From: an archaeon
GTDB lineage: Archaea > Iainarchaeota > Iainarchaeia > Iainarchaeales > 1-14-0-10-31-34
DNA: 15,655 nt
Assembly: GCA_043815885.1 (NCBI GenBank)
Contig: JBDRIL010000033.1
Location: forward strand, 1-15,655
Direction of reading: 5' to 3'
In this document: piece by piece, positions 1-15,515 of the stretch
How the letters are laid out: the number at the start of each line of letters is the position of its first letter
How positions within the stretch are numbered: the first letter of the stretch is position 1
Translations under genes and position numbers: made by a program
The notes under the pieces: model-generated
What the model was told of the DNA's origin: nothing
Databases searched by the model: none
What the model saw: the letters and a program-made list of their open reading frames with translations, nothing else

Positions 1-243
1 GCAATCGATAAAGAAGGAGGAAGATATTTAGCAGAACAAGACGTATTACACAATAAAGGAGAAGTAGGCCCAGACGGATACGGGGCATACGTTGACCCAA
101 TCTGGTGGATGGAAGTAGGCGGAGCAAGATACGGAGGAAAAGGAGGAGAATGTGGCGGACTCGCAATCGATAAAGAAGGAGGAAGATATTTAGCAGAACA
201 AGACGTATTACACAATAAAGGAGAAGTAGGCCCAGACGGATAC
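1..243 (+). repeat. Exact 81-bp direct repeat (1-81 = 163-243), period 162 bp / 54 aa, in frame
   Basis: GCAATCGATAAAGAAGGAGG...CCCAGACGGATAC occurs at 1-81 and 163-243 and encodes AIDKEGGRYLAEQDVLHNKGEVGPDGY twice. Confidence 0.95.
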
Positions 244-3200
244 AGTTCATGTGATTTATTGACAAAACACCTAAGTGATTGTAATAAACTCCGCGAACAA
301 GAATACCTCCAATATTTCGGAGAAAAAGAAAACAAATTAGAAGGAATCATACTTTTATTTAAAAAAGCAATCGAAAAAATTTGGTTCTTAGACTTAATTG
401 ATTATGTGGTTTTCAAAGAAAAACAAAGTATAGAAGAAAATACTGTTGATAAAATAAAAACTATATTCTTTGGCGGGTTATTTCCTTCAACCGATGGCCC
501 GTATGTTTCTCATATCTTTATTCCTTGGTATGATAGATGCCATAAGCTAGATGGCTATGAAGATTTACAGCGAAACCCATTTGAAGAAACACGCGTAGAG
601 TTAGACATCGTTAGCAACAGGCAGAATTTGTTATTAAATGCATATGATTTGAGTGGAGACAGATACTATTATGCAGAGCAGTCATGGATGCATATATGGG
701 GGCAGGGACACGAAAGGCATAATCTGGATTGGGATATTACCTGCCCAAGAGGATATGAAATTGTTCCAGAAACAGTAAAAGGAGAAGAGTATGGAAGAGA
801 TGACTGCGAATACCTTGTACCAGATATTTATGAGAATTCAGTTCATTTCAATGGAAAATGTACTGGAAAGTATTGGTGTGACTTTGGAATAGACATTAAA
901 GGACAGGCAATGTGCAAGCTGGAGGAATGGGATGGAACAGGAAGGGTTCCAATTAAATTCGAGATTACTGAAAATAAGATGAAGACACAACTTAATGCAG
1001 GACTGCCTGTTTACACTACCTTCAATATTTACGCAAATAAAAGAATAGAGGAACTGAGTTCAGGAGGAACAACACTGCCTGTTGGAGACATTAGAGTTGA
1101 ATTCTCAATTCCAAAAGAACTTGCATTGCCTGATGTGGATTTAAATATATTTGACTGTACTGGAGCAGGATTCAAGGATGGAAGAACAGGAGAAGGAGCA
1201 CTGCCAAAGATTAATTTAGCACAAGGAAAGGGATGGTTGTGGGAGGACGTTCCAGTAAATGCCTGCGACCAGGACAACCCAGAACACGTATTCTGTGATG
1301 CAACTCAATTCAGCACAGAGTTAATGCAGAGAATACAGGTCTTGGATGAGTTTTTGAATGAAAATGGTTATGTCTTTGAATGCCCGGAAAATGAATTAGA
1401 GGAAACGCTGAGTGAAGGCAGGTATTATTCCAATACGACTGCAACTGAAGGATTAGAGGAAGGAGTGGATAGTGGAGAGATTGGAATCGATGATGTGATA
1501 ATCAGTACAGGAATACTTGAGGATGGAAGCAAGAATACGCATGTAATAGTTAGAGTTCAGAATAGAACTAATGAGGAAAAGAGTGCAGAGATTGATGTAA
1601 CAATTACAAATGAAGATGAAGGATATAGTGAAACATGCAAGAAAGACTTTGCAGCAGGAATTCCTGCAGCTGGAGGAGAAAGTGAAGGGGCAGGGATTGA
1701 TGCTGAAACATGTGACTTCTATGACTTAGAGCCAAACGATACTGCATATGAAGCAGAAATCACTATTACTTCAACTGGAATAGTTAACCCAGAAGAAGTT
1801 ACTGTAAACTTTGTTGTAATTGAAACAGAGCCAACTGTATTTGAAGGATGCCATATTCCGGCAGGAACTGCGGAAGTCGGAGGAGTATTTATACCAGAAT
1901 ATTGGCTGGATAAGGATGGTCCATACGGAGATTTGGTGAATCAGGACAGCTTTGAAACAACTAATGAAGTAAGAGATTTGGATGACTTATATAATTTGAC
2001 TCACTTCAATGCATTCTTAATGCAGGATTCATATACTACTGACTTCCAGAAAGACTTCCATGACGCAATGACTAAGACTAATTTCTTTGATGCACCGGAA
2101 TACTACAGGAATACAACTGATGGATTAGGAAAGTATTTCTCTGATCCAAACAGGTTTGCATTCTCAGTGGAGGACTCGGATTCAACAAGGCTTCCGGCAC
2201 CAGGGCTTTACAGAGTGGATATAGATGTATGGTTTAGCGAGGACTGGAAGTTCTTTGATTCAGGCGGAGATCCATTAGGAGTAATAATTATAAGGCTGAA
2301 CAGGCTTGCTTCAAGGGACGAGCAAATGTCTGCCTTTTACTATCTGCCGTTTGATGGAAGAGTTGGATTGGAAGGAAGCACTTATAACAGGCAAGGTTAT
2401 GGAGTGGCTTATTCCAATTATGCAATGAATTTACTGCAGGGAGAAGAAATCAGTGAAGTAGTGAAGACTTATTCTTCTGCTGAATCAAATCCATTCATGG
2501 AAATGGATGTAGAATTCGAGCAGGACTTCAGGAATTTGAATTCAGAGTTAGCTTCAAGAGGAGATGTATTGAAGATAAGTGGGGCAGGAACAGGGCAAAA
2601 GAAAATGGTGTTCTCTCCTTCAATTGGAACTCCGGTAATGCTGAAAGTAGAGAATCCGGAAGGAAATCCAATAAAGGCATTTTATAGGTTAATGGAAGAG
2701 GGAAGGATTGGGGAAGCAGGAAGCACTTTAAGCTACTGGGATGGAGCAGACAAGTTAGAGTGCAAGGACTTTGACGGAACATTCCTGTGGAATAAGTATT
2801 CAGTGACTGATACAAAGGCTTCTTCTCTGGACTTGAGAGAGGGAGTGAATATAAAGGATTACAAGCTGGAATGGGATAATGTGAATTATCAAGGAAATGT
2901 ATGGTATAAGAGTATGTTCTATACTCCGACAGAGGAATTATATGCATTGCATACTGTTTCTCCTACAAGCAAAATGACTTTCTATTCCCCTTCAGTTGTA
3001 TCTGGAGGAAGCAGTGTTACACTGAATGGAGTGAAGGGGTCGAGTGGAACAGAATACTTCAATGAAATGAATTCATTGAACAAGATATTTGATTTAGTGA
3101 GGGAAGGAAAGATGTGTATTGCAGACAATGGAAGGACAGTGGATATATTCTGGAATGAAAAGGCATTGTATGAAGATGACTCCTCTGGAAAGAGTGTAAG

Positions 3201-3258
3201 CGATATAGAGGAAGGAATCAATTCAGGGCAGGCTCAATGGAGCTGCATTACCGGCTGA
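1..3258 (+). CDS. Very large acidic, Cys-rich putative secreted/cell-surface protein, 5'-truncated (frame is open from base 1)
   Basis: Frame 1 has no stop from base 1 to TGA at 3256-3258; ATG109 is probably internal. The product is D/E/G/T-rich with many Cys and beta-sandwich-like segments (e.g. THVIVRVQNRTNEEKSAEIDVTITNE). No C-terminal TM helix. Function is inferred from composition only. Confidence 0.8.
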   Translation, partial: AIDKEGGRYLAEQDVLHNKGEVGPDGYGAYVDPIWWMEVGGARYGGKGGECGGLAIDKEGGRYLAEQDVLHNKGEVGPDGYSSCDLLTKHLSDCNKLREQEYLQYFGEKENKLEGIILLFKKAIEKIWFLDLIDYVVFKEKQSIEENTVDKIKTIFFGGLFPSTDGPYVSHIFIPWYDRCHKLDGYEDLQRNPFEETRVELDIVSNRQNLLLNAYDLSGDRYYYAEQSWMHIWGQGHERHNLDWDITCPRGYEIVPETVKGEEYGRDDCEYLVPDIYENSVHFNGKCTGKYWCDFGIDIKGQAMCKLEEWDGTGRVPIKFEITENKMKTQLNAGLPVYTTFNIYANKRIEELSSGGTTLPVGDIRVEFSIPKELALPDVDLNIFDCTGAGFKDGRTGEGALPKINLAQGKGWLWEDVPVNACDQDNPEHVFCDATQFSTELMQRIQVLDEFLNENGYVFECPENELEETLSEGRYYSNTTATEGLEEGVDSGEIGIDDVIISTGILEDGSKNTHVIVRVQNRTNEEKSAEIDVTITNEDEGYSETCKKDFAAGIPAAGGESEGAGIDAETCDFYDLEPNDTAYEAEITITSTGIVNPEEVTVNFVVIETEPTVFEGCHIPAGTAEVGGVFIPEYWLDKDGPYGDLVNQDSFETTNEVRDLDDLYNLTHFNAFLMQDSYTTDFQKDFHDAMTKTNFFDAPEYYRNTTDGLGKYFSDPNRFAFSVEDSDSTRLPAPGLYRVDIDVWFSEDWKFFDSGGDPLGVIIIRLNRLASRDEQMSAFYYLPFDGRVGLEGSTYNRQGYGVAYSNYAMNLLQGEEISEVVKTYSSAESNPFMEMDVEFEQDFRNLNSELASRGDVLKISGAGTGQKKMVFSPSIGTPVMLKVENPEGNPIKAFYRLMEEGRIGEAGSTLSYWDGADKLECKDFDGTFLWNKYSVTDTKASSLDLREGVNIKDYKLEWDNVNYQGNVWYKSMFYTPTEELYALHTVSPTSKMTFYSPSVVSGGSSVTLNGVKGSSGTEYFNEMNSLNKIFDLVREGKMCIADNGRTVDIFWNEKALYEDDSSGKSVSDIEEGINSGQAQWSCITG

Positions 3259-3659: not shown

Positions 3660-4160
3660 ATGGTTTTTGTTGATTCCTCTGTACTGATTCATTTGAGTAG
3701 AATAGGAAAATTGAACCTACTAAAAGAATACTTCAAAGAAATAAAGATAACTGAAGATGTTTTTGAAGAGACAGTAGTTAAATCAGGGGAAGTTGCTGGA
3801 AAGATCGAAATAAAGAGAGGCTGTGATAAATGGATAAAAATAGAAAAGCCAAAAAATGCGGGAAGGGTAAGAGAGCTAAGCAGAAACAATTTAATCAGCA
3901 AAGCAGATGCATCACTAATTGAATCCGCGAGAGAAAGAAAAGAAATACTGCTTACCAACGATTATTTACTGATTAAGGTTGCAAGAAGCTTTGGAGTAGA
4001 ATGCTGGTGGCTGACGACCTTTATTATTAAATGCAGGGAAAAAAATGTTTTGACTAAGTCAGAAACAAAGAAGATAGTTATTGATTTAATTGAATCAGGA
4101 ATGCGGCTTAATATAGAAGTTTATACAAGGATTGAAAAAATAATTGATGAAATGAAATAA
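3660..4160 (+). CDS. vapC: PIN-domain (VapC-like, DUF3368-type) toxin ribonuclease
   Basis: VFVDSSVLIHL, VFEETV, ISKADASLI and LLTNDYLLIKVARSFGV carry the PIN acidic residues; the C-terminal extension is typical of DUF3368. Confidence 0.85.
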   Translation: MVFVDSSVLIHLSRIGKLNLLKEYFKEIKITEDVFEETVVKSGEVAGKIEIKRGCDKWIKIEKPKNAGRVRELSRNNLISKADASLIESARERKEILLTNDYLLIKVARSFGVECWWLTTFIIKCREKNVLTKSETKKIVIDLIESGMRLNIEVYTRIEKIIDEMK

Positions 4161-4186: not shown

Positions 4187-4260
4187 GAAGGAAAGCTTAT
4201 TTTATAAACAGGATGAATTACACGCTGTTACTTGTATTGTTCTCTATAACTGATGAGATA

Positions 4261-4599
4261 ATGAAATGGGAATTCTTTAGTGACATGAATTTTGTCTTGA
4301 AGATATTTGTATTGTTAACAATAATCAGTTTTATTAAAATGAATATTGGGACAGGGGCATTGGGGATAATTTTGATGGCAGGGATTTCTTATTTTGTTTT
4401 ATTTGATTTATGGAAACTGTTCGGAGGAATATACTTAATGTATATGTTATTGTTTTTGGGCTTGAGCCATATTCTTGTGGATTTCTTTTTTGTCAGCGGG
4501 GGCCATGAGCCAACACCAGAAGAAGCAATGCGGGGGAAAGGGGGAATGCACGGACAGGGAATGGCGCATACTGCATTAAGAGGAATGAGGAGAAGATGA
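4261..4599 (+). CDS. Small multi-pass membrane protein (paralog 1) with Gly/Met/His/Arg-rich tail; start uncertain (ATG 4213, 4261 or 4285)
   Basis: About 3 hydrophobic helices; core IISFIKMNIGTGALGIILMAGISYFVLF is shared with the next two ORFs. Confidence 0.8.
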   Translation: MKWEFFSDMNFVLKIFVLLTIISFIKMNIGTGALGIILMAGISYFVLFDLWKLFGGIYLMYMLLFLGLSHILVDFFFVSGGHEPTPEEAMRGKGGMHGQGMAHTALRGMRRR

Positions 4600-4600
4600 A

Positions 4601-4921
4601 ATGAATGAAAAAGGAATTCACTTAATATTCATTATTCTTGGATTGTTCTTGATTCTGGCAATACTTCCAACCATTACAATGTGGTTATTCCCTCAGGCAA
4701 GAATAATCCTTCAAATAATCCTTATCTTCCTGCTTTACTCAATGGTTAGGTCATATCTTGGTTCAGGGATACTAACTATAATAATTTCGGGAATACTAAT
4801 CTATATACTGGTATTCAAGTACCCGGAATTTACTGCTGGAGCATACATACTGTATGTGGCTGCAACACTAATGGTTTCATCAGTAATAATCTGGGGAGCA
4901 GCAATGTTTTTGAGGAAATAA
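4601..4921 (+). CDS. Small multi-pass membrane protein (paralog 2)
   Basis: 106 aa, about 4 hydrophobic segments; core LYSMVRSYLGSGILTIIISGILIYILVFKYPEF; 1 nt after the previous stop. Confidence 0.85.
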   Translation: MNEKGIHLIFIILGLFLILAILPTITMWLFPQARIILQIILIFLLYSMVRSYLGSGILTIIISGILIYILVFKYPEFTAGAYILYVAATLMVSSVIIWGAAMFLRK

Positions 4922-4923
4922 AT

Positions 4924-5172
4924 ATGGGATTTATTTTAGGGGCATTCGAGGCATCAATCTGGACAGCAATCTCCTTATTTGCACTTGTATGGATTTATTC
5001 ATGGGCAAAAGGCAATTTAGGTTCAGCGAAACTAGCCATAATTTTTGCAGCAATAATAGTATACCTTACATTCTATCAGTTCCCTGAATTGGTTTGGTTG
5101 TTTGTGGCTTTATTCCTTTTTGCCACCTTTGGAAAGGAGTTATTTGACAGAGTATATATTTTCAAGCCGTGA
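4924..5172 (+). CDS. Small multi-pass membrane protein (paralog 3)
   Basis: 82 aa; core IYSWAKGNLGSAKLAIIFAAIIVYLTFYQFPEL; 2 nt after the previous stop. Confidence 0.85.
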   Translation: MGFILGAFEASIWTAISLFALVWIYSWAKGNLGSAKLAIIFAAIIVYLTFYQFPELVWLFVALFLFATFGKELFDRVYIFKP

Positions 5173-5178
5173 TAATGA

Positions 5179-5499
5179 ATGGATACATTTACCTTTCTCC
5201 TGGCAGTAATATTCCTGATGATGGCAGTGCAATGGCAGCAGAATTGGCTAGTCATAGCAATAGTAGTAATAATGATTCTCTATATGCGTTCAATAAAGGC
5301 AACAGTAGGGCTGATAATTGCGTTGGGTGTACTATATATATTAAGAGATAGCATAGCTGAATATGCGTTATATATTATCATTGGGATGGTTATATTGGCA
5401 CTGATTATTGGCTTTAAGGAGAAACAAGCTGAACCAGAATACTATTCCCCTGACATGCTTGGAGGATTAATGGGCGGAGGCATGGGAGGAGGAATGTAA
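5179..5499 (+). CDS. Small membrane protein with short hydrophobic helices and a GGM-rich C-terminal tail
   Basis: Hydrophobic over about the first 78 aa, then EPEYYSPDMLGGLMGGGMGGGM; operon spacing of 6 nt. Confidence 0.85.
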   Translation: MDTFTFLLAVIFLMMAVQWQQNWLVIAIVVIMILYMRSIKATVGLIIALGVLYILRDSIAEYALYIIIGMVILALIIGFKEKQAEPEYYSPDMLGGLMGGGMGGGM

Positions 5500-5889
5500 T
5501 TGAATAAGCTTGTTTCAGTACTCCTGCTCATAATAATTGCATTTATTGGATATGAAATGCAACTGGTTTGGGTAAGCATTATAGCAGTACTGCTTTTAAT
5601 ATTCATTGTCCTGGGTTCTGTTTTAAGGGGAACAGCAAGGGCTGGATATGGCATAGCAAGAGAAGGAACAAGGGACATGATGAATGACATGGAGGAAGCA
5701 GAGCCAAAGCCTCCAGAAGGAGAGTACCTGGCAGAATTAACAGAGGAAGCAGCAAAGAAGTTCCCTGAATTAAAGGAAAGCCCAGAAAACAGATGGACGA
5801 TAGACCATAAAACGCAAAGAATACACAAAGGCTCAAAGGGACTGCTTGAAGGAATACAGAAATTATTCAGGAAAAAGTTTGTGGATTAG
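5500..5889 (+). CDS. Membrane-anchored protein: N-terminal hydrophobic hairpin + charged/amphipathic helical region (TTG start)
   Basis: Starts immediately after the previous TAA; two hydrophobic segments, then a charged region ending in amphipathic GLLEGIQKLFRKK. Confidence 0.8.
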   Translation: MNKLVSVLLLIIIAFIGYEMQLVWVSIIAVLLLIFIVLGSVLRGTARAGYGIAREGTRDMMNDMEEAEPKPPEGEYLAELTEEAAKKFPELKESPENRWTIDHKTQRIHKGSKGLLEGIQKLFRKKFVD

Positions 5890-6383
5890 GATTTCTTGTT
5901 TATAAGGCTTCTATTGGTTTCCAATACTTTCTTCATTATTGAATGAGTGGCATTAGTTGATGCCTTTATTTCAGATAATTCTTTTTTCATTTCAGTGAGT
6001 TCCTTTTCCAATTCATTCATTTTCTTTATTATTTTTTCTGCATAAAGGCTTTGGTCCTTGAGTCTGCCTATTGCAGCCTTAACTGAATCCATCTTGGAAT
6101 GGAATTCATCCAGTTTTGCGCTGTGTTCGTCAAGCTTTAAGTGAGTGGAAGTTTCTTTCAGTTCATCTGTCTGGTTTGTTTCTGCGGAAGCTTCCTCTGG
6201 CTCAGGGGTTTCTTCTTCTGGTTCTTCCTCTTCTTCTGGATTTGATTCTGCTTTTGCAATCAATTCATTTATTTCTTCTTCCTTTAAACCCAGATCAATC
6301 AAAGCAGACTTTATTATGGAATCTTCTATTCCTGAGGCCTTCATTTTCTTAATGGTTTTAAGAACCACTTCTTCGTTCACCAT
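5886..6383 (-). CDS. Soluble protein: N-terminal small helical domain, acidic linker, C-terminal coiled coil
   Basis: 165 aa; TIKKMKASGIEDSIIKSALIDLGLKEEEINELI helical motif, EPEEE linker, heptad-rich C-terminus; stop overlaps the convergent gene. Confidence 0.8.
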   Translation of the reverse strand: MVNEEVVLKTIKKMKASGIEDSIIKSALIDLGLKEEEINELIAKAESNPEEEEEPEEETPEPEEASAETNQTDELKETSTHLKLDEHSAKLDEFHSKMDSVKAAIGRLKDQSLYAEKIIKKMNELEKELTEMKKELSEIKASTNATHSIMKKVLETNRSLINKKS

Positions 6384-6543
6384 AAAAAATCATTCAACAA
6401 TCAAGTGCTTTCGAATAAATTACGCGCTTTAAATTAATAAATGTATTCGTTTAATTCAATTCATTTTTTGAGACAAAAGTTATTAATAAGATTTAGCATA
6501 TTATATTAGACAATTAATTAATTTGTTTAAAGGTAGAGTGAAA

Positions 6544-8058
6544 ATGGATTTCAAGTTAAGGGAAGGTCCCTGGAACAAGTTATTTCAGGGAAACTATCAG
6601 GGATTTGAGGTAGAGATTCATTCAAATCCTGAAAGCGTTCTGATTGTAACAGTGCTTGAAAGAAAGAAGGAAAAAATAGAGGGAGCAGTCATAGAGTTAT
6701 TCAAGGTATTTGCAGTTGAAGGAGAGCTGGAAGACTTTGTGGATACCTTTCCAAGAGAGGCAATGGTTTTAATAAAACACGAACCAAAGAGCAGCCTCAA
6801 GTATTTCTTGGTTAGCAGTACCCCGAGCTATGCAAAGTACAAGGAAGAAGAGTTTTGCAATGAAACAGAGAAATTACTGAAGAAATTGAAGGAAAGCGCA
6901 AGAACAATAAAGGATGTAAGCAGGGCATATGATTTGAGCCTGACTGAATTGCATGAAGCAGGAGAAAAATTCAGGGCAGCATTCTTTTCCCAGCCATTAA
7001 TGGCTCCACTGATTACTCCAACAGCAAGAGAGGAAACAGGTTATGAGCCAATAGATTTAAGCGAAAGAAAGAGGATAGGAAAGGGAGAAGTTATTCTGGG
7101 GGTTACAAGAGGCAATGTAGTGGTAAAAGAGCCACTGGAATTGCTTTGCAGGACAACCATCTTTGGTTCAACTACATTGGACAGAAAACACGCAATACAT
7201 ATAATTGCTGAAGGCGGACTAATAAGCAATGTAGCTGTAGTATTGTTTGACTGGGATGAATCATTTAATGGACTGAATACGCCTTCAAATGATTTGGCTT
7301 CACTGCAGAAGTACAAGGTGAACTTTGAGCCAATAGGTTTTCCTATAAGAGACTTTAAAGCAATGGACTTAAAGGTTGACTTGAATCTGATTAGTGTTAG
7401 CGGAACAATGGAATTATTTGGAGTGAGAGGAGAAGAAGAAGCAAAATTCATTACCAGTTTAATTAAGGAAGGAAAAGTGGATTCAATTGAAGAGTTAGCG
7501 AAAAGAGCACGTAAATCCCAGTTACTGGATGAATCAAAGGCAGGAGTTAAAAACAGAACAATAAGAATCCTGAGATTAATAGATTTAAGGCACCCAAAAC
7601 TGTTTGGAGGAAAAAACGAAATAAATGAAATCTCAAAGAACTGGGCGAAAGCGATTGGCAGGGCAGGAATCATTCATTTAGAGGGAATAGAAAGAAGAGC
7701 AGCAACACTCTTAATCCATAACCTATTGAAAGGAATCTTTCTGCACTATGATGCAATGAGGAAAACCAAAGGAGTGAATGCACTGATTTTACTGCCTGAA
7801 ATAAAAATTATTCTTTCGGCAGAAAATCCAAGCTTAATGGAAAAAGAAATAATGGAGTTATTAAAGAAATTCAAGGAAGTAGGAGTCTGCTTTGCTCTGA
7901 GCAGTGACCGTCCAGGGGACCTGCTTAGAGAGGTAATAACCCTGAGTGAAACAGAGATATTCATTCTCTCAAGAGCAGATGTAGGCGTGAGAATGTCCCG
8001 CTCAAAACAATACAGGATAATGATGCGGCCTGGATTGAGCCAGTGCACGGAAAAATAG
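6544..8058 (+). CDS. HerA/VirB4/FtsK-superfamily (DUF87-like) P-loop-fold protein with degenerate catalytic motifs; start probably ATG6544
   Basis: Motif order VILGVT...RTTIFGSTTLDRKH...VAVVLFDWDESFNGL...LILLPEIK...KKFKEVGVCFALSSDRPGDL...VITLSETEIFI mirrors the HerA-family pattern (Walker A, hhhhD, Walker B DEAH, RK-G-hhhh-sQrP). Confidence 0.75.
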   Translation: MDFKLREGPWNKLFQGNYQGFEVEIHSNPESVLIVTVLERKKEKIEGAVIELFKVFAVEGELEDFVDTFPREAMVLIKHEPKSSLKYFLVSSTPSYAKYKEEEFCNETEKLLKKLKESARTIKDVSRAYDLSLTELHEAGEKFRAAFFSQPLMAPLITPTAREETGYEPIDLSERKRIGKGEVILGVTRGNVVVKEPLELLCRTTIFGSTTLDRKHAIHIIAEGGLISNVAVVLFDWDESFNGLNTPSNDLASLQKYKVNFEPIGFPIRDFKAMDLKVDLNLISVSGTMELFGVRGEEEAKFITSLIKEGKVDSIEELAKRARKSQLLDESKAGVKNRTIRILRLIDLRHPKLFGGKNEINEISKNWAKAIGRAGIIHLEGIERRAATLLIHNLLKGIFLHYDAMRKTKGVNALILLPEIKIILSAENPSLMEKEIMELLKKFKEVGVCFALSSDRPGDLLREVITLSETEIFILSRADVGVRMSRSKQYRIMMRPGLSQCTEK

Positions 8059-8060
8059 GG

Positions 8061-8552
8061 TTATTTTTTCTTCCTTTTTGGCTTTACTGTTTTTTTGTCC
8101 TGCATTAATTCCTTTGCCTGTTCAAGGGTAACGAATTCAAGGGGATTGATTGCATCAATGACATACTTTAATTCTTTAAGTTCTTCAGCTTTAGCAAAGG
8201 ATTCCTTCATTTTCTCCAAAGAAGTGTTTATGTCATTAATCATTGCACTGTTCTGGTTTATTTTTTCCTCAAGGGCATAGAGTGAATCCTTTAATTCCTG
8301 GACAGAGGGAAACTCTGTTCCCTCAGCAACTGAAACCCCTCCAGTATAAGCCCTTGATTCCAGGACCTTTAATTTCTTGTTCAGGATTATGAGGTTTCTT
8401 CCAAGGATTTTTTCATTCCTTACAACGTAATTCATTTTCTGGGAGAGCAACAAGACAGAGGAATTCAATGCACGAATATCTCTAATCATGTCCTGAATAG
8501 AGTAAGCCATTCCCTTTGTAGTAGTCTGTTTTGAATGTCTTTCATGGGGCAT
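8061..8552 (-). CDS. Coiled-coil protein with C-terminal LKYVIDAINPLEFVT motif and basic tail
   Basis: 163 aa with heptad periodicity; AGGTGA RBS upstream on the minus strand; convergent with the ATPase-like gene (2-nt gap). Confidence 0.8.
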   Translation of the reverse strand: MPHERHSKQTTTKGMAYSIQDMIRDIRALNSSVLLLSQKMNYVVRNEKILGRNLIILNKKLKVLESRAYTGGVSVAEGTEFPSVQELKDSLYALEEKINQNSAMINDINTSLEKMKESFAKAEELKELKYVIDAINPLEFVTLEQAKELMQDKKTVKPKRKKK

Positions 8553-8640
8553 TTGCTTTCACCTGAACTAATAGACAACAAAGTGATTAATAATTGTTTT
8601 TATTTAATATAAATATTTGGAAAAAAAGGATTGATTTTAA

Positions 8641-11073
8641 TTGAATAAAGCAAAAGGAATACTGCTTGATGCTGATTCTGTTACCGGAAAAGAAAATGAG
8701 AGCATTATAAGGCTGTATGTTAAGGGAGAAAAAGGCATAGAGATATTCGAGGAAAGGAGCTTCAAGCCTTACTTTTACGTCATAGTTGAAGATGTAAGAA
8801 AAGCGAAGAAAGAATTAATGGAAAGAGAGTTTGAGGGAAAGGAAGAAAAAATAAGGATATTGAATGCAGAGGAAGTAAAGAAAAAGAATGCAGAAAATGT
8901 ATTGAAGTTAAGCTTTAACAGCACGAATGAATTAAGTGAAGTGAGAGAGCAGGTAAAGGAAGTGGAAGGAGTAAAAGAGAGAAGAGAATACGATATTATT
9001 TTTGTAAAGAGATACCTGATTGACAAGGCATTAGAGCCAATGAATTACGTTGAGATTTCTTACAGAAAAGAAGGAAAAAAGAAGGTAGTGGAAAAAATCC
9101 AGAAGGGAAAGAAGGAAGCAGGAGAGGAATTCAAAACAGAAGCAATTGACTTGGAGACGTTTTCCCTTGAAAGGTTTTCTGATCCAAGAAAAGATGCAAT
9201 CCTGATGATTTCAATCGCCTCTCCAAAAGAATCGCTTGTGGTTACAACGAAAAAGGAATTAAAGGGAAGAAAAGGAGTAAAGATAGTAGGAAATGAGAAG
9301 GAAATGATTGAGGAATTAAAGGAGAACATAAAGGAAGAGGGAATAGAAATACTTGTCACTTACAATGGAGACACATTTGATTTGCCTTACCTGAAAGAAA
9401 GAAGCAGGATAATGAAAACAAGGTTTGATATCGGGATAGACGGAAGCGAGCCACAGATAAGAAGGAAAGGATTGAGCAATGCAACAAGAATCAAGGGAAT
9501 ACAGCACTTTGATGCCTATCAATTAATCAGGATTCTGTCAAGATTCGGGATAATTGATTTAGTGAAATATGATTTGGAGTCAGTGGTAGAGGCATTGTAC
9601 GGAGAAAAAAAGGAAAAAATTAAGGCAGAAGAAATAACCAAGATATGGGAGAGCGGAAAAGGATTGGAGAAGTTGGTTGAATACAATCGAGAGGATTCAG
9701 TCTTTACCCTGAAGATTGCAATGGATTATTTGCCTCTATTTATTGAATTAAGCAAGCTGGTTAAACAGACACTGTTTGAAGTGAACAGGATTGGAGCAAG
9801 CGGATTAGTTGAATCCCTGCTTATAGACAAGGGATTTGAAGAAGACACGCTTGTGCCAAATAAACCAAATGAAACAGAGGTAAAGAATAGAATGATGAAG
9901 ACCTTCAAGGGAGGTTATGTTAAGGAGCCTACGCCTGGACTGCATGAAGAGATTGCAGTGCTTGATTTCAGGAGCCTTCATCCATCCATAATGATCTCGC
10001 ATAATGTAAGCCCAGAGACATTGAATTGCGAGTGCTGCAGCAAGAGCAAAAAAAATATTGCTCCAACAAAGGATTATTTTTGCTCAAAGAAGTCAGGGTT
10101 TCTTCCGTCAGTGCAAAAGGAACTGCTTGAAAGAAGGAAAGAAATAAAGAAAGAATCAAAGAAGCTGGAGAGAAAGAGTGAAAAATATAAATTGCTTGAT
10201 GCAAGGCAGCATGCATTGAAAATAATACTTAATTCCTTTTACGGGTACTTAGGCTATCCAAGAAGCAGATGGTATTCAATTGAAAGCGCCAAGGCAGTTA
10301 CTGCTTGGAGCAGGCACTACATAAGGGAAACCATCAGAAAATCAGAAGAAGATGGCTTTAAAGCAATCTATTCTGATACTGATTCATGCTTTATAGTTAT
10401 CCCGAAAGAAAAAACTGCAAAGAATGTAAATGAATTCATAAAGAAGGTTAATGCTGAACTGCCTGGAGAAATGGAACTGGAATTAGAGGGAATCTATAAG
10501 AGAGGCATATTTGTAACAAAAAAAATTGGAGGAGCTGCAGCAAAAAAGAGGTATGCATTGATTGACGGGGAAGGAAACCTGAAGATAGTCGGATTTGAGT
10601 ATGTAAGAAGAGACTGGGCTGTAGTGGCAAAGGAGACACAGAAAAGGGTAATTGAATTAGTACTGAAAGAAGGAAAACCAGAGAAGGCAATAGAGGAAGT
10701 AAAAGAAAAGATAAAGAGGTTAAGGGAAGGAAAAACGCCAAAAAAAGAACTGGTTATTTATACGCAGATAAAAAAACCCTTAAGCCAGTATGAATCCATC
10801 GGTCCACATGTATCTGCAGCAAGAAAAGCAATAAAAAAAGGAAAGAATTTAGGAATAGGTTCAATTATCGGATACATTGTAACCAAGAGCGGCAAAAGCA
10901 TTTCAGATAAAGCAGAATTAGAGGAATTCGTAAAGGAAGGAAACTATGATGCGGATTACTATATCGAGCACCAGCTTGTACCGGCAGTAATAAAAATCAT
11001 CCAGGAATTAGGTTATGGAAAGGAAGATTTGATTCATGGAGGAAAGCAGGCAACACTGAATGCATTTAAATAG
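8641..11073 (+). CDS. polB: Family B DNA polymerase (archaeal PolB3-like) with 3'-5' exonuclease domain
   Basis: ExoI AIDLET, ExoII TYNGDTFDLPYL, ExoIII YNRED; motif A DFRSLHPSI, motif B QHALKIILNSFYGY, motif C YSDTDS, KKRYA, GFEYVRRDW. Confidence 0.97.
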   Translation: MNKAKGILLDADSVTGKENESIIRLYVKGEKGIEIFEERSFKPYFYVIVEDVRKAKKELMEREFEGKEEKIRILNAEEVKKKNAENVLKLSFNSTNELSEVREQVKEVEGVKERREYDIIFVKRYLIDKALEPMNYVEISYRKEGKKKVVEKIQKGKKEAGEEFKTEAIDLETFSLERFSDPRKDAILMISIASPKESLVVTTKKELKGRKGVKIVGNEKEMIEELKENIKEEGIEILVTYNGDTFDLPYLKERSRIMKTRFDIGIDGSEPQIRRKGLSNATRIKGIQHFDAYQLIRILSRFGIIDLVKYDLESVVEALYGEKKEKIKAEEITKIWESGKGLEKLVEYNREDSVFTLKIAMDYLPLFIELSKLVKQTLFEVNRIGASGLVESLLIDKGFEEDTLVPNKPNETEVKNRMMKTFKGGYVKEPTPGLHEEIAVLDFRSLHPSIMISHNVSPETLNCECCSKSKKNIAPTKDYFCSKKSGFLPSVQKELLERRKEIKKESKKLERKSEKYKLLDARQHALKIILNSFYGYLGYPRSRWYSIESAKAVTAWSRHYIRETIRKSEEDGFKAIYSDTDSCFIVIPKEKTAKNVNEFIKKVNAELPGEMELELEGIYKRGIFVTKKIGGAAAKKRYALIDGEGNLKIVGFEYVRRDWAVVAKETQKRVIELVLKEGKPEKAIEEVKEKIKRLREGKTPKKELVIYTQIKKPLSQYESIGPHVSAARKAIKKGKNLGIGSIIGYIVTKSGKSISDKAELEEFVKEGNYDADYYIEHQLVPAVIKIIQELGYGKEDLIHGGKQATLNAFK

Positions 11074-11096: not shown

Positions 11097-11996
11097 GTGA
11101 TTGAAATGAAGGAAAAGGAATTCAAGTCATATGTTAAGGCAGGAAAAGTGCTTAAAAGAATTCAGTCAAATGCAAAGACTTCAATCAAAGAAGGAATGAA
11201 GTTACTGGATATAGCGGAAAAAATCGAGAAGGAAATAATTGAGTTGGATGCAAAACCCGCTTTCCCCGCAAACCTTTCTCTGAATAATAATGCAGCGCAT
11301 TATACTCCTGCAAGTGATGATGAAACAGTAATAGGAGAAAAGGATGTGCTGAAAGTGGATATAGGGGTTCATGTGGATGGATTTATTGCTGATGCATCCA
11401 TTACAATTGATTTCTCCAATGAATGGGGGAAAATGGCGGAAGCAACAGAAAAGGCATTAGAGAATGCATTAAGCATGCTTAAAGTGGGAAGAAAATTAGG
11501 CGAAATCGGGACAGAGATAGAAAAAACAATTCGTTCTTATGGCTTTAATCCAGTGCAGAATTTAAGCGGCCATGGTTTAGCAGAATACCAAACCCATGCC
11601 TCTCCTTCCATTCCAAATATATCTAAAAGAGACGCGAGAACAATAGAAGAAGGAAAGGCATATGCAGTAGAGCCATTTGCAACCAATGGAAGCGGTTTTG
11701 TAAAAGAAGCGCCACAAACAGAGATATTTGAATTAAATGAAGTAAAACCAGTAAGGAACCTGGAAGCAAGAAAGATTTTAAGCAAAGTGGAAGAAGAATA
11801 CAATACCCTTCCATTTGCACAGAGATGGTTATTGAAGAGCTTTTCTCCAATCAATACAAAGATTGCCTTAAGGGAATTAATCCAAAGAGAATGTTTGAAG
11901 AGGTATCCATTGCTGAGAGAACAAAAGGAAATGATTGTAACACAGGCAGAAAATTCCTTTGTAGTGCACAACGAGGAAATAGTTGTATTAGTCTAA
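11097..11996 (+). CDS. map: Type II methionine aminopeptidase
   Basis: AFPANLSLNNNAAHYTP, KVDIGVHVDGFIAD, NLSGHGL, AVEPFAT, the type II helical insert (LPFAQRWL...YPLLRE) and the terminal E ligand. Confidence 0.96.
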   Translation: MIEMKEKEFKSYVKAGKVLKRIQSNAKTSIKEGMKLLDIAEKIEKEIIELDAKPAFPANLSLNNNAAHYTPASDDETVIGEKDVLKVDIGVHVDGFIADASITIDFSNEWGKMAEATEKALENALSMLKVGRKLGEIGTEIEKTIRSYGFNPVQNLSGHGLAEYQTHASPSIPNISKRDARTIEEGKAYAVEPFATNGSGFVKEAPQTEIFELNEVKPVRNLEARKILSKVEEEYNTLPFAQRWLLKSFSPINTKIALRELIQRECLKRYPLLREQKEMIVTQAENSFVVHNEEIVVLV

Positions 11997-12038
11997 TTAG
12001 ATTTTTAATTGTTTTCAATTAATACTTCATTGAGTAAG

Positions 12039-12515
12039 ATGACTAAAAGAGAAACCTACTTCAAAATAATCATTGTATTGCTGGCAGTAGGATTGATTGC
12101 AGTACTGATCCAAAACCAGATGATTATAGGAAAAATAACTGAATTAAATTTAAAAGGAAATGGAGAAACAGCAGGAAACGAAGAAACAAAGGAAACAAAT
12201 ACAGTGGAAAAAGAAACAGAGAAAGAAACCCCTTCTGGAGAAGAAATCCAAACAAACCCATTCCAAGAAGTAATAGACAAGCTGTTGCTTCACCCGGAAA
12301 TAGAGAACTACAATGGAAGAATGGCTATAATCACTCCTTTAAATGAAGAAAACCTTCCGGAATTAAAGGAAAAATATCCAAACATTTATTCTGATTCTAA
12401 AGCAGGAGACTATGTTTTTGAGTATTCGGATCTTCTTGTAGTGTATGACTACAAGAATGACTCAATAGTAAAGATATTCAATATACAAAACATCAATATA
12501 AGCGCAGAACAATAG
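12039..12515 (+). CDS. Single-pass membrane-anchored hypothetical protein (start probably ATG12039)
   Basis: N-terminal TM IIIVLLAVGLIAVLI, E/T-rich linker, globular C-terminal domain (YPNIYSDSKAGDYVFEYSDLLVVYDYKNDSIV). Confidence 0.75.
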   Translation: MTKRETYFKIIIVLLAVGLIAVLIQNQMIIGKITELNLKGNGETAGNEETKETNTVEKETEKETPSGEEIQTNPFQEVIDKLLLHPEIENYNGRMAIITPLNEENLPELKEKYPNIYSDSKAGDYVFEYSDLLVVYDYKNDSIVKIFNIQNINISAEQ

Positions 12516-12554
12516 ATTTAAATTCAATGAAGTCCTATAAAGTAATGGATTTCA

Positions 12555-13565
12555 ATGGACCTGGTTTTTTCAAGGAAAGACTTTGTATTTATTGCATTAA
12601 TTGCAATAAGTATAATTCTCTGGGGTTTTTTCCTTAATGCAAGCGGAATTTTACTGGAAGAAATACTTAAATTCGAAAACATTAAGGCCACAATTAATTC
12701 TCTGACAGCAATTCCATTCATCTTATTTGTTGTATTGTTTCCCTTAACAATAGCCCTTGCAACTGTTTTTTGTGAAATTGAAAAAGAAAAAAAGAAGTCA
12801 TTTATTGTTATTCCTGTTGGAGTGTTGATTGGATTAATTGTTTCAATGCTAGTATTCAGCAATTTAATGGGTTACTGGTTGGCGGGAATCTTTTACATTA
12901 TTTCATTTTTCCTTTTAATCGAAATGAGTTATACAAGGTTAGAGGAATTAAAGAAGTATGTCTCTATGAGGCTGTTAAGTGAATCCGTGAGAAGAACAGT
13001 ATTAATCACTGCAATCGGGTTGTTTATGCTTTCAGCATTAACTGTTTTAGAGAACAAGGAAGCATATGAAGAGAGTTTAGAGGGCGAAATGATTAGTTTT
13101 TCAATTGGAGAAGACACAAGAGATGACTTGGCTGAATTGAGTGCAAACATGATAATACAAAACTACAATCAAATACTGGATGAAATCATTTCAACGGAAT
13201 CCTTTCAGGCACTAAAGACCTCTCCTGACCCAAACGCAATAGCATTTGCATTAGGACTAGAAGAATCAAAACAAAGGATTAATTCCTCTGAATACAGAAG
13301 AGAAGCAATAAGAAAAGCAAATGACGCGCAGGAAGGCGCAATAACAGAGCAACAAATGGAAGAAATGCTTGAATCAATGAAAGACAAAATGCCATTATAC
13401 GGCTTAATGATGCAATTTCTATGGTTGATTTTAGGCTTTGCATTATTCTCTGTATTCCTGCTATTGGGAAACACTGTATTCATGGTTCTGGGAATAATTT
13501 ACGGATTAATCATCATAACAGTAACAAAAGGAATGGTAGAAGGTTCTCCAGCAAAAACAAACTAA
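12555..13565 (+). CDS. Multi-pass membrane protein with a large helical soluble loop
   Basis: About 5 N-terminal TM segments, an acidic helical region of about 110 aa, and a long C-terminal hydrophobic segment. Confidence 0.85.
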   Translation: MDLVFSRKDFVFIALIAISIILWGFFLNASGILLEEILKFENIKATINSLTAIPFILFVVLFPLTIALATVFCEIEKEKKKSFIVIPVGVLIGLIVSMLVFSNLMGYWLAGIFYIISFFLLIEMSYTRLEELKKYVSMRLLSESVRRTVLITAIGLFMLSALTVLENKEAYEESLEGEMISFSIGEDTRDDLAELSANMIIQNYNQILDEIISTESFQALKTSPDPNAIAFALGLEESKQRINSSEYRREAIRKANDAQEGAITEQQMEEMLESMKDKMPLYGLMMQFLWLILGFALFSVFLLLGNTVFMVLGIIYGLIIITVTKGMVEGSPAKTN

Positions 13566-13603
13566 TTAAAAATAATCTTTCTGATAATTCTTTATTCTTT
13601 TCC

Positions 13604-13676
13604 GGCCTCATAGTGTAATGGATTAGCACAAAGGCTTGCGGAGCCTTTAATCGGGGTTCAATTCCCCGTGGGGCCG
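13604..13676 (+). tRNA. tRNA-Arg (anticodon GCG), CCA not encoded
   Basis: Acceptor GGCCTCA/TGGGGCC, anticodon arm AAGGC-TTGCGGA-GCCTT, T arm CGGGG-TTCAATT-CCCCG, discriminator G. Confidence 0.95.
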
Positions 13677-13688
13677 TCGCCGAAAGGC

Positions 13689-13916
13689 TTTTTTTCGCCA
13701 GCCTTTTGGTAAAAAGCCGAAGGCGGTTTTCGCCGCCGTTTTTTCAAAAGGGCGTGCAGGAGTAGCGAAGTGGCCAAACGTGACAGCTTCAGGGGCTGTT
13801 GGCTTAGTGCCTTCGGGGGTTCGAATCCTCCCTCCTGCAATAACCTTTTGAAAAAAGGTTAATCAAAAAAGCAGGAGGCATCCTTGAGTTTTCGCAAACC
13901 TTTTTGTAAAAGGTTT
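13689..13916. repeat. Cluster of short palindromic repeats (CTTTT-nnn-AAAAG stems) around the tRNAs
   Basis: TAACCTTTT-GAA-AAAAGGTTA (13841-13861), AAACCTTTT-TGT-AAAAGGTTT (13896-13916), and degenerate copies GCCTTTT-GGT-AAAAAGC (13701-13717) and at about 13735-13754. Confidence 0.75.
13756..13839 (+). tRNA. tRNA-Leu (anticodon CAG) with long variable arm
   Basis: Acceptor GCAGGAG/CTCCTGC + A73, anticodon arm ACAGC-TTCAGGG-GCTGT, variable arm GGC-TTAGT-GCC, T arm GGGGG-TTCGAAT-CCTCC. Confidence 0.95.
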
Positions 13917-13922
13917 TTCGGG

Positions 13923-13937
13923 TCCTCCCTCCTGCAA
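13923..13937 (+). repeat. 15-bp duplicate of the tRNA-Leu 3' end (TCCTCCCTCCTGCAA)
   Basis: Identical to 13826-13840. Confidence 0.9.
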
Positions 13938-13967
13938 AACCGAAAATAATCGGTTTACGCTTACAGC

Positions 13968-14046
13968 GTCGGGGTATCTTTGATACCCCATAAACTGATT
14001 TATCAGTTTACACTATATTAGGGATATTTACAAGCAATACCCCGAC
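13968..14046. mobile_element. MITE-like 79-bp element with 10-bp terminal inverted repeats and internal hairpins
   Basis: GTCGGGGTAT (13968-13977) / ATACCCCGAC (14037-14046); internal GGGGTATC-TTT-GATACCCC and TAAACTGA-TTTA-TCAGTTTA. No target-site duplication seen. Confidence 0.35.
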
Positions 14047-14077
14047 ATAAAAAATAAAAAAAAGAAAAAGAAAGGAG

Positions 14078-14962
14078 TCAACTGTAAAGTTCTTGGACTC
14101 CTATAATGTCTCCAGCTTCAAGGGTTCTCTTGTTTGTTTCGCCTTCGTCTGCATAACCGTACATTGTTGCCTCTGAGCACTTTACATTGTAGAGGTCATC
14201 CATTCCAACACTGTGTCCGAGTTCGTGTGTAGCAATATTCTCGAAATCCATCTTGTTTGCATCTCCTGATGCAGACCAATCAAAGTCAACCTGGTCATAG
14301 ATTTGATCCCATTCAACTAATTCTCTCTGTGAAGGCTTTCCTCCAAATCTGCCCCACACTACAGTTATAGCGATAGCACCGTAATCATCCACGTCCCCAA
14401 AATAGACTTCGTTCTTGTTGTCTGGTTCTATTAGGTCTGCTTCAAGTTCTTCATTTGTACTTGAACCATTTCCAATAATGTCAACCCCTGCAGCTGTTTC
14501 CCACTTGTTGATGTCCAAAGCCAAATTAGTGAGTATAAATGAGGCATTTAATCCCTGAGTGTTTGATGTATTAACCACATAAGGTTCAATGGTTTTCCAT
14601 TTAGCGCCTCTTGCAAGAAACCCATAGCAATTGCTTCCCTCTTCTCCATTGTCTCCCCCGCAATCAGCAGGACAGCTCTTTGAATTCTCTGAAGGTTCAC
14701 AGAATCCATTACCACATTCAGTTCCAGGTTTGCCGAAACCTTTCTTGTACTGGATTATTGCATAGCCTTCAACTGTCTTTCCTTTGTGTACGGCTTTTCC
14801 AAGGTAAAATACTCCTGGAGAGACTTCCACTGCATTTGAAGGCAGGGAAACCTTTGCCTTTTCTTTAATCTCTTTTGGCACGTAGTCTGGTTTTACTGCC
14901 ACTGCAGAACTAACTGAAAAAACCAGCATTACAAATAAACCCAAAATTAGAAATTTCTTCAT
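14078..14962 (-). CDS. Secreted metzincin (matrixin/M10-like) metalloprotease with a Cys-rich CGNGxCE motif
   Basis: Signal peptide MKKFLILGLFVMLVFSVSSAVA; zinc motif HELGHSVGMDD; Met-turn ATMYG; CGNGFCEPSENSKSCPADC; GGTGA RBS upstream on the minus strand. Confidence 0.9.
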   Translation of the reverse strand: MKKFLILGLFVMLVFSVSSAVAVKPDYVPKEIKEKAKVSLPSNAVEVSPGVFYLGKAVHKGKTVEGYAIIQYKKGFGKPGTECGNGFCEPSENSKSCPADCGGDNGEEGSNCYGFLARGAKWKTIEPYVVNTSNTQGLNASFILTNLALDINKWETAAGVDIIGNGSSTNEELEADLIEPDNKNEVYFGDVDDYGAIAITVVWGRFGGKPSQRELVEWDQIYDQVDFDWSASGDANKMDFENIATHELGHSVGMDDLYNVKCSEATMYGYADEGETNKRTLEAGDIIGVQELYS

Positions 14963-15031
14963 TATTGAATCACCCCTATAAATTAATTGGATTGTCTACA
15001 ATTATAAAACTTTCTCCTGAACAAATATTTC

Positions 15032-15319
15032 ATGCCTCCAAAACCGCCACTGAAACCGCCTTTGCATGAAGCTCCGCCTAAATCACCTCATCCCCCGCCA
15101 CATAAACCGCCACATGAGCCTCCTCACGAGAGAAGAAAGAAATTTTTAGGGAAAAGAGTTATTTACAGCGTAGGAATTGGATTAATTGTGACATTTGTTT
15201 TAAGCCTGGTTTTATGGATATTTAATATCCCAATTAATGTAATTCTTCCTGTTGCGGCTCCAGTATGGGCTGGAACAACAACAATTGCTTACACTGCACT
15301 GGGAGACAAGTTTGAATAA
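15032..15319 (+). CDS. Small membrane protein with Pro/His-rich repetitive N-terminus and two TM helices
   Basis: MPPKPPLKPPLHEAPPKSPHPPPHKPPHEPPHE, then RRKK and two hydrophobic segments; TTATAAAA about 25 nt upstream suggests a leaderless transcript. Confidence 0.7.
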   Translation: MPPKPPLKPPLHEAPPKSPHPPPHKPPHEPPHERRKKFLGKRVIYSVGIGLIVTFVLSLVLWIFNIPINVILPVAAPVWAGTTTIAYTALGDKFE

Positions 15320-15389
15320 AACAAAACCTATTTAAAATAATTGAGACATTAATATCTATTGATTAACAATGAAAAGTGACTGTCTTCAT

Positions 15390-15515
15390 ATCAAACTTTT
15401 TAGAAAAAAGTTTGATCAAAAATGATTTTAGGCTGATTCTGTTTAGTTATAGGAAGGCATTAAAACTTTTAAAAAAAGTTTTATCAAAAAACATTGTATA
15501 CCTTCGGTATACAAT
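15390..15515. repeat. Palindromic repeats upstream of tRNA-His
   Basis: ATCAAACTTTTT-AGA-AAAAAGTTTGAT (15390-15416), TAAAACTTTT-AAA-AAAAGTTTTA (15461-15483), both running into ATCAAAAA; ATTGTATACC-TTC-GGTATACAAT (15493-15515). Confidence 0.85.

Follow-up and report, generated by a model that had tools for sequence, protein, structure and literature searches.

The Locus and Its Eight Genes

The stretch of DNA analysed here, called the window in the following, is a contig of 15,655 nt (C33; JBDRIL010000033.1) from a 1.16 Mb draft assembly of an archaeon of the order Iainarchaeales in the phylum Iainarchaeota (GCA_043815885.1; 62 contigs, 92% complete; called G000). It carries eight adjacent genes that encode five small membrane proteins (tm1 to tm5), two helical proteins (cc1 and cc2) and one protein that resembles the translocase HerA. 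An original prediction, made from the letters of the DNA, had described them as a candidate membrane machine, perhaps of a DPANN-type symbiont, and had refrained from naming a system; the host is a DPANN-type archaeon with a small genome, and no component of the set reaches the cut-off of a named family. As judged from sequence comparisons, the eight genes form a lineage-specific, single-copy and essential-looking set that nearly all genomes sampled in the phylum keep, mostly as neighbours. They are arranged as follows:

4213-4599 (alternative start 4261), + strand: tm1, small membrane protein with a three-helix core and a basic tail
4601-4921, + strand: tm2, small four-helix membrane protein
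4924-5172, + strand: tm3, small three-helix membrane protein
5179-5499, + strand: tm4, small four-helix membrane protein with a Gly/Met-rich tail
5500-5889, + strand: tm5, two-helix hairpin followed by a soluble tail of ~85 aa
5886-6383, - strand: cc1, 165 aa, helical/coiled coil
6384-6543, no strand: AT-rich divergent intergenic region from cc1 to the HerA-like gene, from reading of the sequence
6544-8058 (alternative TTG start 6523), + strand: HerA-like gene, 504 aa (511 aa from TTG)
8061-8552, - strand: cc2, 163 aa, helical

The gaps between tm1 and tm5 are 1, 2, 6 and 0 nt, cc1 overlaps the stop of tm5 by 4 nt and cc2 ends 2 nt past the HerA-like gene. The listing of open reading frames (ORFs) confirms the eight frames, spacings and stop overlaps that the prediction had given, and also its remark that the genes are not all co-oriented, as cc1 and cc2 lie on the - strand and the rest of the set on the + strand. 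Two starts were revised. For tm1, the alignments of orthologues point to the ATG at 4213, and for the HerA-like gene to the ATG at 6544 (MDFK...), where the resulting 504 aa equal the length of database entry P0001. Each family of the set was recovered in related loci with profile E-values of 1e-10 to 1e-55, and the ORFs are therefore real genes and not chance frames. The promoters of cc1 and of the HerA-like gene would be expected in 6384-6543; a scan for sigma-70-type promoters and terminators, which is ill-suited to archaea, gave counts not above those of shuffled sequence.

The HerA-Like Protein and Its ATP Site

An alignment of 38 orthologues of the HerA-like protein (A1) was the basis of an AlphaFold2 model and of the counts of catalytic columns. 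The model has a mean pLDDT (predicted local distance difference test) of 87.4 and shows a beta barrel (18-105) that a helical linker joins to a RecA-type core (189-500). When searched with Foldseek against the PDB, its top matches were all HerA, with probability 1.0, E-values of 5e-14 to 1e-9 and sequence identities of 9-12%. These matches include Thermococcus HerA-NurA (9x1m, E 5e-14), Sulfolobus HerA (4d2i), Deinococcus HerA (7wrw) and the HerA subunits of SIR2-HerA and DUF4297-HerA complexes (8sub and 8zit are among the HerA entries compared). The listed fold matches comprise HerA plus one DndH C-domain, and none is VirB4 or FtsK. The protein has a HerA fold.

By sequence, DUF87 (PF01935) was matched by eight of the 38 orthologues at E <= 0.01 (best 3.1e-07) and was precomputed for 6 of 25 database relatives, which carry the name 'hypothetical protein'. 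The protein of the window itself has no Pfam match at E <= 0.1 and no match to PDB sequences below E 0.1. The NCBIfam model of CedD, a component of the crenarchaeal DNA import system Ced, matched 44 residues at the P-loop region with 15.9 bits against a cut-off of 600 (E 0.004). No convincing transmembrane helix was found in the HerA-like protein, and its sole hydrophobic window lies within the RecA-like core.

The position of the P-loop reads G-x5-R-x. Gly215 is kept in 32 of the 38 orthologues, and where the P-loop lysine would stand, 33 have Arg and one has Lys, followed by a position that is not predominantly Ser/Thr; GxxxxGK[ST] occurs at this place in none (0/38). At Walker B, the strand is followed by Pro in 33 orthologues and by Asp in none of the 38. 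The residues that are invariant in A1 lie elsewhere (W17, G193, E230, P274 and R498), and an EPxGFP motif and a C-terminal RxxxRPxLS are conserved too. The family is thus a pseudo-ATPase throughout, with the Walker A and Walker B residues lost in every aligned orthologue. The original prediction had spoken of a pseudo-ATPase of HerA/VirB4/FtsK fold, of which the HerA fold and the dead motifs (38/38) stand and the VirB4 or FtsK fold has to be dropped, as the best matches are HerA. Since the ATP-site motifs are lost, the HerA-like protein cannot be the motor of a system of the type of Ced, the type IV secretion system (T4SS) or the type VII secretion system (T7SS).

The source genome encodes three further matches to the DUF87/HerA family (contigs C4, C62 and C29), one of them within an ORF of 1393 aa. 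In at least one further DUF87 protein both Walker motifs are intact (Walker A GKRGGGKS, Walker B DE). None of these three proteins is matched by the A1 profile, even at E 10.

Distribution and Gene Neighbourhood

With the single protein as query, the HerA-like family was found in 59 of 61 relatives and in all 32 high-quality genomes among them. Of 201 phylum genomes, 194 gave a match to the A1 profile (58/58 of high quality), and the seven genomes that gave none are 68-81% complete. Similarly, the tm3 profile (A6) matched 118 of 121 phylum genomes of at least 85% completeness, including 55/55 of high quality. The cc2 profile (A2) found one copy in each of five genomes searched (5/5), also in genomes in which cc2 is unlinked; in some, hundreds of kb separate it from the HerA-like gene, or the two are on different contigs. 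Every family of the set is single-copy in the source genome, and retention extends to genomes of 0.5-0.8 Mb. Among 1.84 billion representative proteins, the A1 profile matched 186 at E <= 1e-30 and 261 at E <= 1e-10, and a further 636 matches are weaker; the family is narrow. Four HerA-like matches (in G004, G007, G001 and G011) contain one internal stop each (TAA, TGA, TAG and TAA, respectively), where the match possibly runs past the gene end. For cc2, 180 relatives were found in genome contigs. The record titles of 80 cc2-bearing loci name Iainarchaeum (30), Diapherotrites (2) and Micrarchaeota (3), and the rest mostly 'archaeon'; L071, L073, L075 and L091 are titled Chloroflexi, Chloroflexota, Thaumarchaeota or Falkowbacteria, which, like the three Micrarchaeota titles, are probably binning or labelling errors.

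Gene order was compared in wide loci, that is the HerA-like gene with 8 kb on either side, from 20 genomes of the same order, with the families located by profile search. The usual order is the gene of a giant exported protein, tm1 to tm5, cc1 on the opposite strand, the HerA-like gene, cc2 on the opposite strand, a family B DNA polymerase (polB) and a methionine aminopeptidase (MetAP). All 20 wide loci contain cc1, in each case adjoining the HerA-like gene; tm3 and tm4 are present in 18 each, tm5 and cc2 in 16 each and tm1 and tm2 in 14 each. The distance from tm3 to the HerA-like gene is 1.35-2.06 kb in the first ten rows of the tm3 survey. For polB, synteny was found in 30 of 39 related loci. 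Outside the order, four of seven loci from sister orders keep the core order tm1 to tm4, cc1, HerA-like gene and cc2 (tm1 orthologues were recorded in two of the seven, L044 and L045), one (L050) has a partial set of tm3, tm5, cc1, HerA-like gene and cc2 together with polB and MetAP, and two are contigs of 3-6 kb on which the HerA-like gene is found alone.

The rearrangements that do occur are informative. One locus (L033) differs by a single inversion of tm3 to cc2, with breakpoints exactly at tm2|tm3 and cc2|polB. Another (L028) has, besides the inversion, cc2 moved to just upstream of tm3, in the orientation of the tm genes. L032 and L034 lack the giant gene and tm1-tm2 in the neighbourhood. 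Within the most divergent small-genome families (L021-L023, L025), tm3, tm4, cc1 and the HerA-like gene or fewer are close together, and cc2 and tm3 are still present in those genomes. In families f2 and f31, cc2 or tm3 lies far from the HerA-like gene, and in G054 cc2 and tm3 are 5 kb apart on a contig other than that of the HerA-like gene. Overall, the gene set is resistant to rearrangement. The original prediction had named scattered homologues that do not co-occur as the finding that would speak against it; the co-occurrence counts for the HerA-like protein and tm3 and the shared order show a conserved set instead.

The Small Membrane Proteins

A Kyte-Doolittle scan gave two to four hydrophobic helices for each of tm1 to tm5. 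Three of them are distant paralogues. When profiles were searched against all ORFs of the genome, tm1, tm2 and tm3 cross-matched with E-values of 1.6e-06, 2.4e-06, 8.7e-06, 8.4e-05 and 2e-3, where 1.6e-06 is the match between tm1 and tm2, and 2.4e-06 and 8.7e-06 are those of tm2 to the tm1 and tm3 profiles. The same cross-matches recur in other genomes. The three share a three-helix core with a basic 'LGSxK'-type loop after the first core helix and a 'PE/DxW' turn after the second. The best conserved of the five is tm3, with 42% mean column identity (A6), and tm5 is poorly conserved at 28%; ORFs with the architecture of tm5 are found at the same position in sister orders.

Database searches gave these proteins no name. 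A Pfam scan of 52 orthologues of tm1, tm2 and tm4 yielded nothing in 51 and no family that reached its cut-off; none of 15 tm1 orthologues had a match, and 22 of 23 tm4 orthologues had none at E <= 0.001, with one sub-threshold match to Peptidase_M50B. The NCBIfam scan of tm1 to tm5 gave nothing notable and no Ced family at E <= 0.1. The nearest neighbours of tm3 and cc2 in the ESM Atlas are unnamed archaeal clusters. Following the positive-inside rule, the basic tail of tm1, the Gly/Met-rich tail of tm4 and the ~85-aa tail of tm5 are predicted to be cytoplasmic.

The N-terminus of tm2 is conserved and reads MNEKG followed by a hydrophobic helix. Such a start, MN(E/Q)(K/R)G plus a hydrophobic helix, resembles a class III (prepilin-type) signal, and the residue after the Gly is usually Asn. 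Asn at this place is atypical for prepilin-type cleavage sites. Two matches to the prepilin peptidase family PF01478 are present in the source genome (contigs C13 and C31).

The Helical Proteins cc1 and cc2

The two helical proteins flank the HerA-like gene. Orthologues of cc1 have a conserved helical domain of ~50 aa at the N-terminus and a conserved coiled coil at the C-terminus, with an acidic linker in between that varies. Matches to the coiled-coil family DUF7310 were found in 7 of 27 of them, all below the cut-off, and one orthologue matched RuvA_C (E 1.7e-4). The best conserved protein of the whole set is cc2, with 14 invariant columns in alignment A2. It has an 'RNEKILGRN' motif in a very conserved N-terminal helix, an 'INPLEF' region near the C-terminus and basic ends. 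The ESM Atlas model of cc2 resembles long helical hairpins, and the Atlas row for FlaC_arch scored 0.81, under the lead threshold of 0.9.

The possibility that cc1 and cc2 are paralogues was rejected, as hhalign gave a probability of 29% and aligned the generic coiled coil alone. For Snf7, PspA_IM30 and DivIC, a single one of the 28 cc2 orthologues gave a match in each case, at E ~1e-3, which resembles noise from coiled coils. Since Snf7 also has no match in the source genome, the relationship of the coiled coils to ESCRT-III (endosomal sorting complex required for transport III) or PspA that the prediction had raised was not borne out. Families of the WXG100/T7SS type were absent from the Pfam matches of cc1 and cc2 orthologues. 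A structure prediction of the complex of HerA-like protein, cc1 and cc2, made with alignments, scored 0.05 against a mark of 0.32, a result that counts neither for nor against binding.

Exported Proteins, Toxin-Antitoxin Insertion and Flanking Genes

The remaining features of the window are:

1-3258, + strand: 3' part of the gene of the giant exported protein, 1085 codons, open at the contig end
3356-3646, + strand: UPF0175 antitoxin-like gene, with a UPF0175 match
3660-4160, + strand: PIN-like gene, with a PIN match below the cut-off
8641-11073, + strand: polB (PF00136, E 2.3e-68), a flanking housekeeping gene outside the set
11097-11996, + strand: MetAP, flanking gene
12009-15655, both strands: ORFs of 168, 336, 294 and 95 aa, of which the 336-aa ORF is a clear membrane protein
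14078-14962, - strand: matrixin-like secreted peptidase, 294 aa, with HExxH

The giant ORF (1085 aa, 1-3258) has no Pfam match. Only its last ~700 aa are conserved, with many invariant Cys, Trp and Gly residues, and it has no C-terminal membrane helix. Within window positions 1-250, at the contig end, a 27-residue stretch (AIDKEGGRYLAEQDVLHNKGEVGPDGY) occurs twice among the first 81 codons, which is either a tandem repeat or an assembly artefact. The conserved C-terminal domain was modelled with a pLDDT of 78.5 and matched only immunoglobulin (Ig)-like sandwiches (integrins, accessory domains of glycoside hydrolase family 2 and adhesins) with template modelling (TM) scores of ~0.13; no function was assigned. 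The identification as an archaeal MSTP-type surface-layer protein (PF07752) was also rejected, since the protein has no Pfam match and PF07752 has none anywhere in the 92% complete source genome.

The original prediction had placed the set downstream of a giant surface-protein gene. This position is shared, as in 14 of the 20 wide loci tm1 is preceded by a giant that has the conserved C-terminal domain, but the link itself is weakened. The domain is multi-copy: four ORFs of the source genome contain it, with lengths from 1085+ to 2586 aa (in the window and on contigs C38 and C34), and 2-8 matches were found in each of five genomes of the same order. In sister orders, none of five genomes that otherwise retain the set gave a match to the domain, and three of these are at least 92% complete. 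Two loci of sister-order family f34 have Cys-rich proteins in the place of the giant before tm1 (L044, 2119-5521; L045, 1664-2836). These are 751, 378 and 390 aa long with 24, 10 and 8 Cys, and each has an N-terminal hydrophobic helix and no Pfam match. The 751-aa and 378-aa proteins of L044 were rejected as relatives of the giant domain (hhalign probability <1%). Since these exported Cys-rich proteins are unrelated to the giants, the constant feature is an exported Cys-rich gene upstream of tm1-tm2 and not the giant family.

Between the giant gene and tm1, ~1 kb of the window is filled by a toxin-antitoxin-like pair, as had been predicted. The UPF0175 gene is above its cut-off (E 5e-08, 33 bits against 27.9) and the PIN-like gene below (17.6 bits against 23.6). 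Neither gene was found in any of 39 related loci, and the gap between giant gene and tm1 is 11-146 nt in the relatives examined, apart from three loci with 0.9-2.3 kb. By comparison with these loci, the pair is a lineage-specific insertion into an otherwise tight junction.

Downstream of MetAP, the 336-aa membrane protein (12555-13565) belongs to no Pfam family and also keeps its place in several related loci (E 1e-10 to 1e-47). The matrixin-like metallopeptidase (14078-14962, - strand) has a hydrophobic N-terminus and a Cys-rich linker, and beside it a small membrane protein is encoded (15032-15319, + strand) with a proline/histidine-rich 'PPHxPPHE' N-terminal tail.

A Proposed Membrane-Associated Complex and Its Alternatives

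We tentatively favour, at somewhat less than even chances, the reading that the eight proteins form one complex at the cytoplasmic membrane that is not a motor, is scaffolded by an inert HerA ring and perhaps serves exported surface proteins. The HerA-like protein would form a ring like its HerA relatives and act as a passive cytoplasmic scaffold, for which the FlaH ring is an analogy. The proteins cc1 and cc2 and the cytoplasmic tails of tm1, tm4 and tm5 would tie this ring to the membrane part, where the small tm subunits could build a hetero-oligomeric platform or pore. More speculatively, the platform may mount, anchor or position exported Cys-rich surface proteins. This last step is suggested because such a gene directly precedes tm1-tm2 in the order of the window and in two loci of one sister-order family, where the exported proteins belong to different families. 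Even if the complex exists, we give a service to exported surface proteins less than half of the weight. Energy for any work would have to come from another source, since the ATP site is lost. The fullest version of the reading, a new envelope apparatus in which a dead HerA ring and coiled coils organise a hetero-oligomeric platform or pore of tiny three-helix paralogues that handles exported Cys-rich proteins, including the variable giants, seems rather unlikely as a whole.

Several observations weigh against the proposed complex. The genes lie on alternating strands and therefore do not form one operon. The conserved order also takes in polB, MetAP and the 336-aa membrane protein, and since housekeeping genes keep the same order, part of the synteny may be inertia and not function. 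The predicted extracellular loops of tm1 to tm5 are only a few residues long and offer little to hold a large ectodomain. Because the giant-protein domain was not found in sister orders and is multi-copy elsewhere, a dedicated giant-protein anchor is doubtful. Finally, a search of sequencing runs with positions 4200-8600 listed no RNA run; one DNA run contained 0.92 of the words and the other seven <=0.21.

Some of the same observations would be expected if there were not one machine at all but two or three unrelated groups (the exported protein with tm1-tm2; tm3 to tm5; cc1, HerA-like gene and cc2) in a slowly rearranging region. The unrelated polB and MetAP keep their place in the same order, the strands alternate, tm1-tm2 are away from the neighbourhood in L032 and L034, and the families with cc2 or tm3 far from the HerA-like gene fit this picture. 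However, tm3 to cc2 moved as a unit in L033, and cc2 is found close to tm3 after its relocation in L028 and also in G054. The paralogues tm1, tm2 and tm3 would be split over separate groups, and all parts have the same phyletic range. Unrelated groups seem unlikely.

Two further explanations place the set among known kinds of machines. It could be a DNA or protein channel like Ced, T4SS or T7SS, with the tm proteins as pore or pilus-like polymer and the dead HerA ring as docking adaptor for an active ATPase elsewhere. The parts list is similar, with small helical membrane subunits and a protein of the FtsK-HerA superfamily, and according to PMC11868833 Ced too combines ATPases that are paralogous, CedB and CedD, with the small subunits CedA1 and CedA2. 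The faint CedD match lies over the P-loop region, at least one other DUF87 protein of the genome has intact Walker motifs, and the MNEKG start of tm2 coexists with two prepilin-peptidase matches. Against this, the CedD score is far from its cut-off, tm1 to tm5 match no Ced or VirB family, the fold is that of HerA with an N-terminal barrel and not VirB4, and the A1 profile misses the other DUF87 proteins of the genome. The locus also contains no polytopic protein like VirB6 or CedA, and a set retained universally in single copy beside housekeeping genes does not resemble a mobile or accessory system of transfer. A channel of this kind is quite improbable. The prediction had drawn a parts-list likeness to Ced, T4SS and T7SS, but membership found no support in NCBIfam or Pfam matches to Ced or VirB2 families, in the CedD score or in the fold. 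It is equally improbable in our view that the set is an accessory of division, chromosome segregation or membrane remodelling, in which a HerA-derived ring and coiled coils would link the nucleoid or division ring to a membrane anchor. Universal, single-copy and essential-looking retention even at 0.5-0.8 Mb would suit such a role, the basic N- and C-terminal tails of cc2 could bind DNA, the locus adjoins polB, and the Streptomyces proteins CmdA-F offer an analogy, by description only (PMC2782261). The DivIC, Snf7 and PspA matches of single orthologues would point the same way, but at one in 28 each they look like noise. Moreover, the genome already has three FtsZ/tubulin matches and no Snf7, the adjacency to polB is simple flanking that persists across the L033 inversion, and a HerA with a dead ATP site is unable to pump DNA.

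The genomes of DPANN archaea are tiny and yet retain many conserved genes of unknown function, and it is a standing question in what way these cells assemble their envelope and make contact with others. Eight single-copy genes that are kept down to genomes of ~0.5 Mb make a strong candidate for an undescribed core cellular structure, and a small one, as the whole set comprises only ~1,250 residues. If the fullest version of the reading holds, the HerA motor fold would have been recruited as a static membrane scaffold, and the platform would mount, exchange or gate exported surface proteins and so be the main interface of the cell with partners or environment.

Comparison With Known Systems

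Full-text searches on HerA/DUF87 or surface proteins of DPANN, Iainarchaeota and Diapherotrites, with subscription journals outside their coverage, found no description of the locus. It can be compared with better known systems. As described in PMC11868833, Ced imports DNA in crenarchaea and consists of CedA, CedA1, CedA2, CedB, CedD and CedE, and it resembles the locus in combining small membrane subunits with a protein of the HerA/VirB4 superfamily. The locus differs in its dead ATPase; CedA, CedA1 and CedA2 are absent from the NCBIfam matches of tm1 to tm5 (E <= 0.1), and the set is universal and chromosomal, with no marks of a damage-induced accessory system found. With regard to T4SS, none of the listed fold matches is VirB4, and by sequence the tm proteins match no T4SS family of Pfam or NCBIfam. 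T7SS has a multi-domain, membrane-anchored FtsK-like ATPase, whereas the HerA-like protein is a single domain, and the orthologues of cc1 and cc2 matched no WXG100 family in Pfam.

FlaH of the archaellum motor is a ring of RecA/KaiC type that does not hydrolyse ATP and scaffolds FlaI and FlaJ. The likeness to it is functional only, an inactive ring of P-loop fold beneath a membrane complex, as FlaH belongs to another branch of RecA-like folds and the scans of the locus gave no match to pilin, FlaI or FlaJ families. The parts list and the proposed membrane complex also recall CmdABCDEF of Streptomyces, five membrane proteins and one ATP-binding protein that are needed for septation and segregation according to PMC2782261; the comparison is one of descriptions only. 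Following the same source, CmdB depends on its ATPase domain and the cmd genes are transcribed together as one bacterial operon, in which they differ from the genes described here.

The known HerA systems remain the nearest in fold. HerA-NurA, SIR2-HerA and DUF4297-HerA pair the translocase with NurA, SIR2 and DUF4297, none of which is encoded in the locus, and the partners here are coiled-coil and small membrane proteins. An anti-phage defence function of the HerA type was rejected, as seven of the eight proteins had no PADLOC match and cc2 one at noise level, and the distribution is universal and not patchy. HerA translocases share the N-terminal beta barrel and the RecA-type core with the HerA-like protein, and eight of the 38 orthologues match DUF87 weakly by sequence; they differ in having the Walker A Lys/Ser and the Walker B Asp, at a sequence identity of only 9-12%. 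The locus thus encodes a HerA-family protein that has no catalytic site and a new conserved set of partners. It would be a clear natural case of the HerA translocase fold turned non-catalytic with conserved partners of its own, and as such bears on the evolution of pseudo-enzymes and of FtsK-HerA machines.

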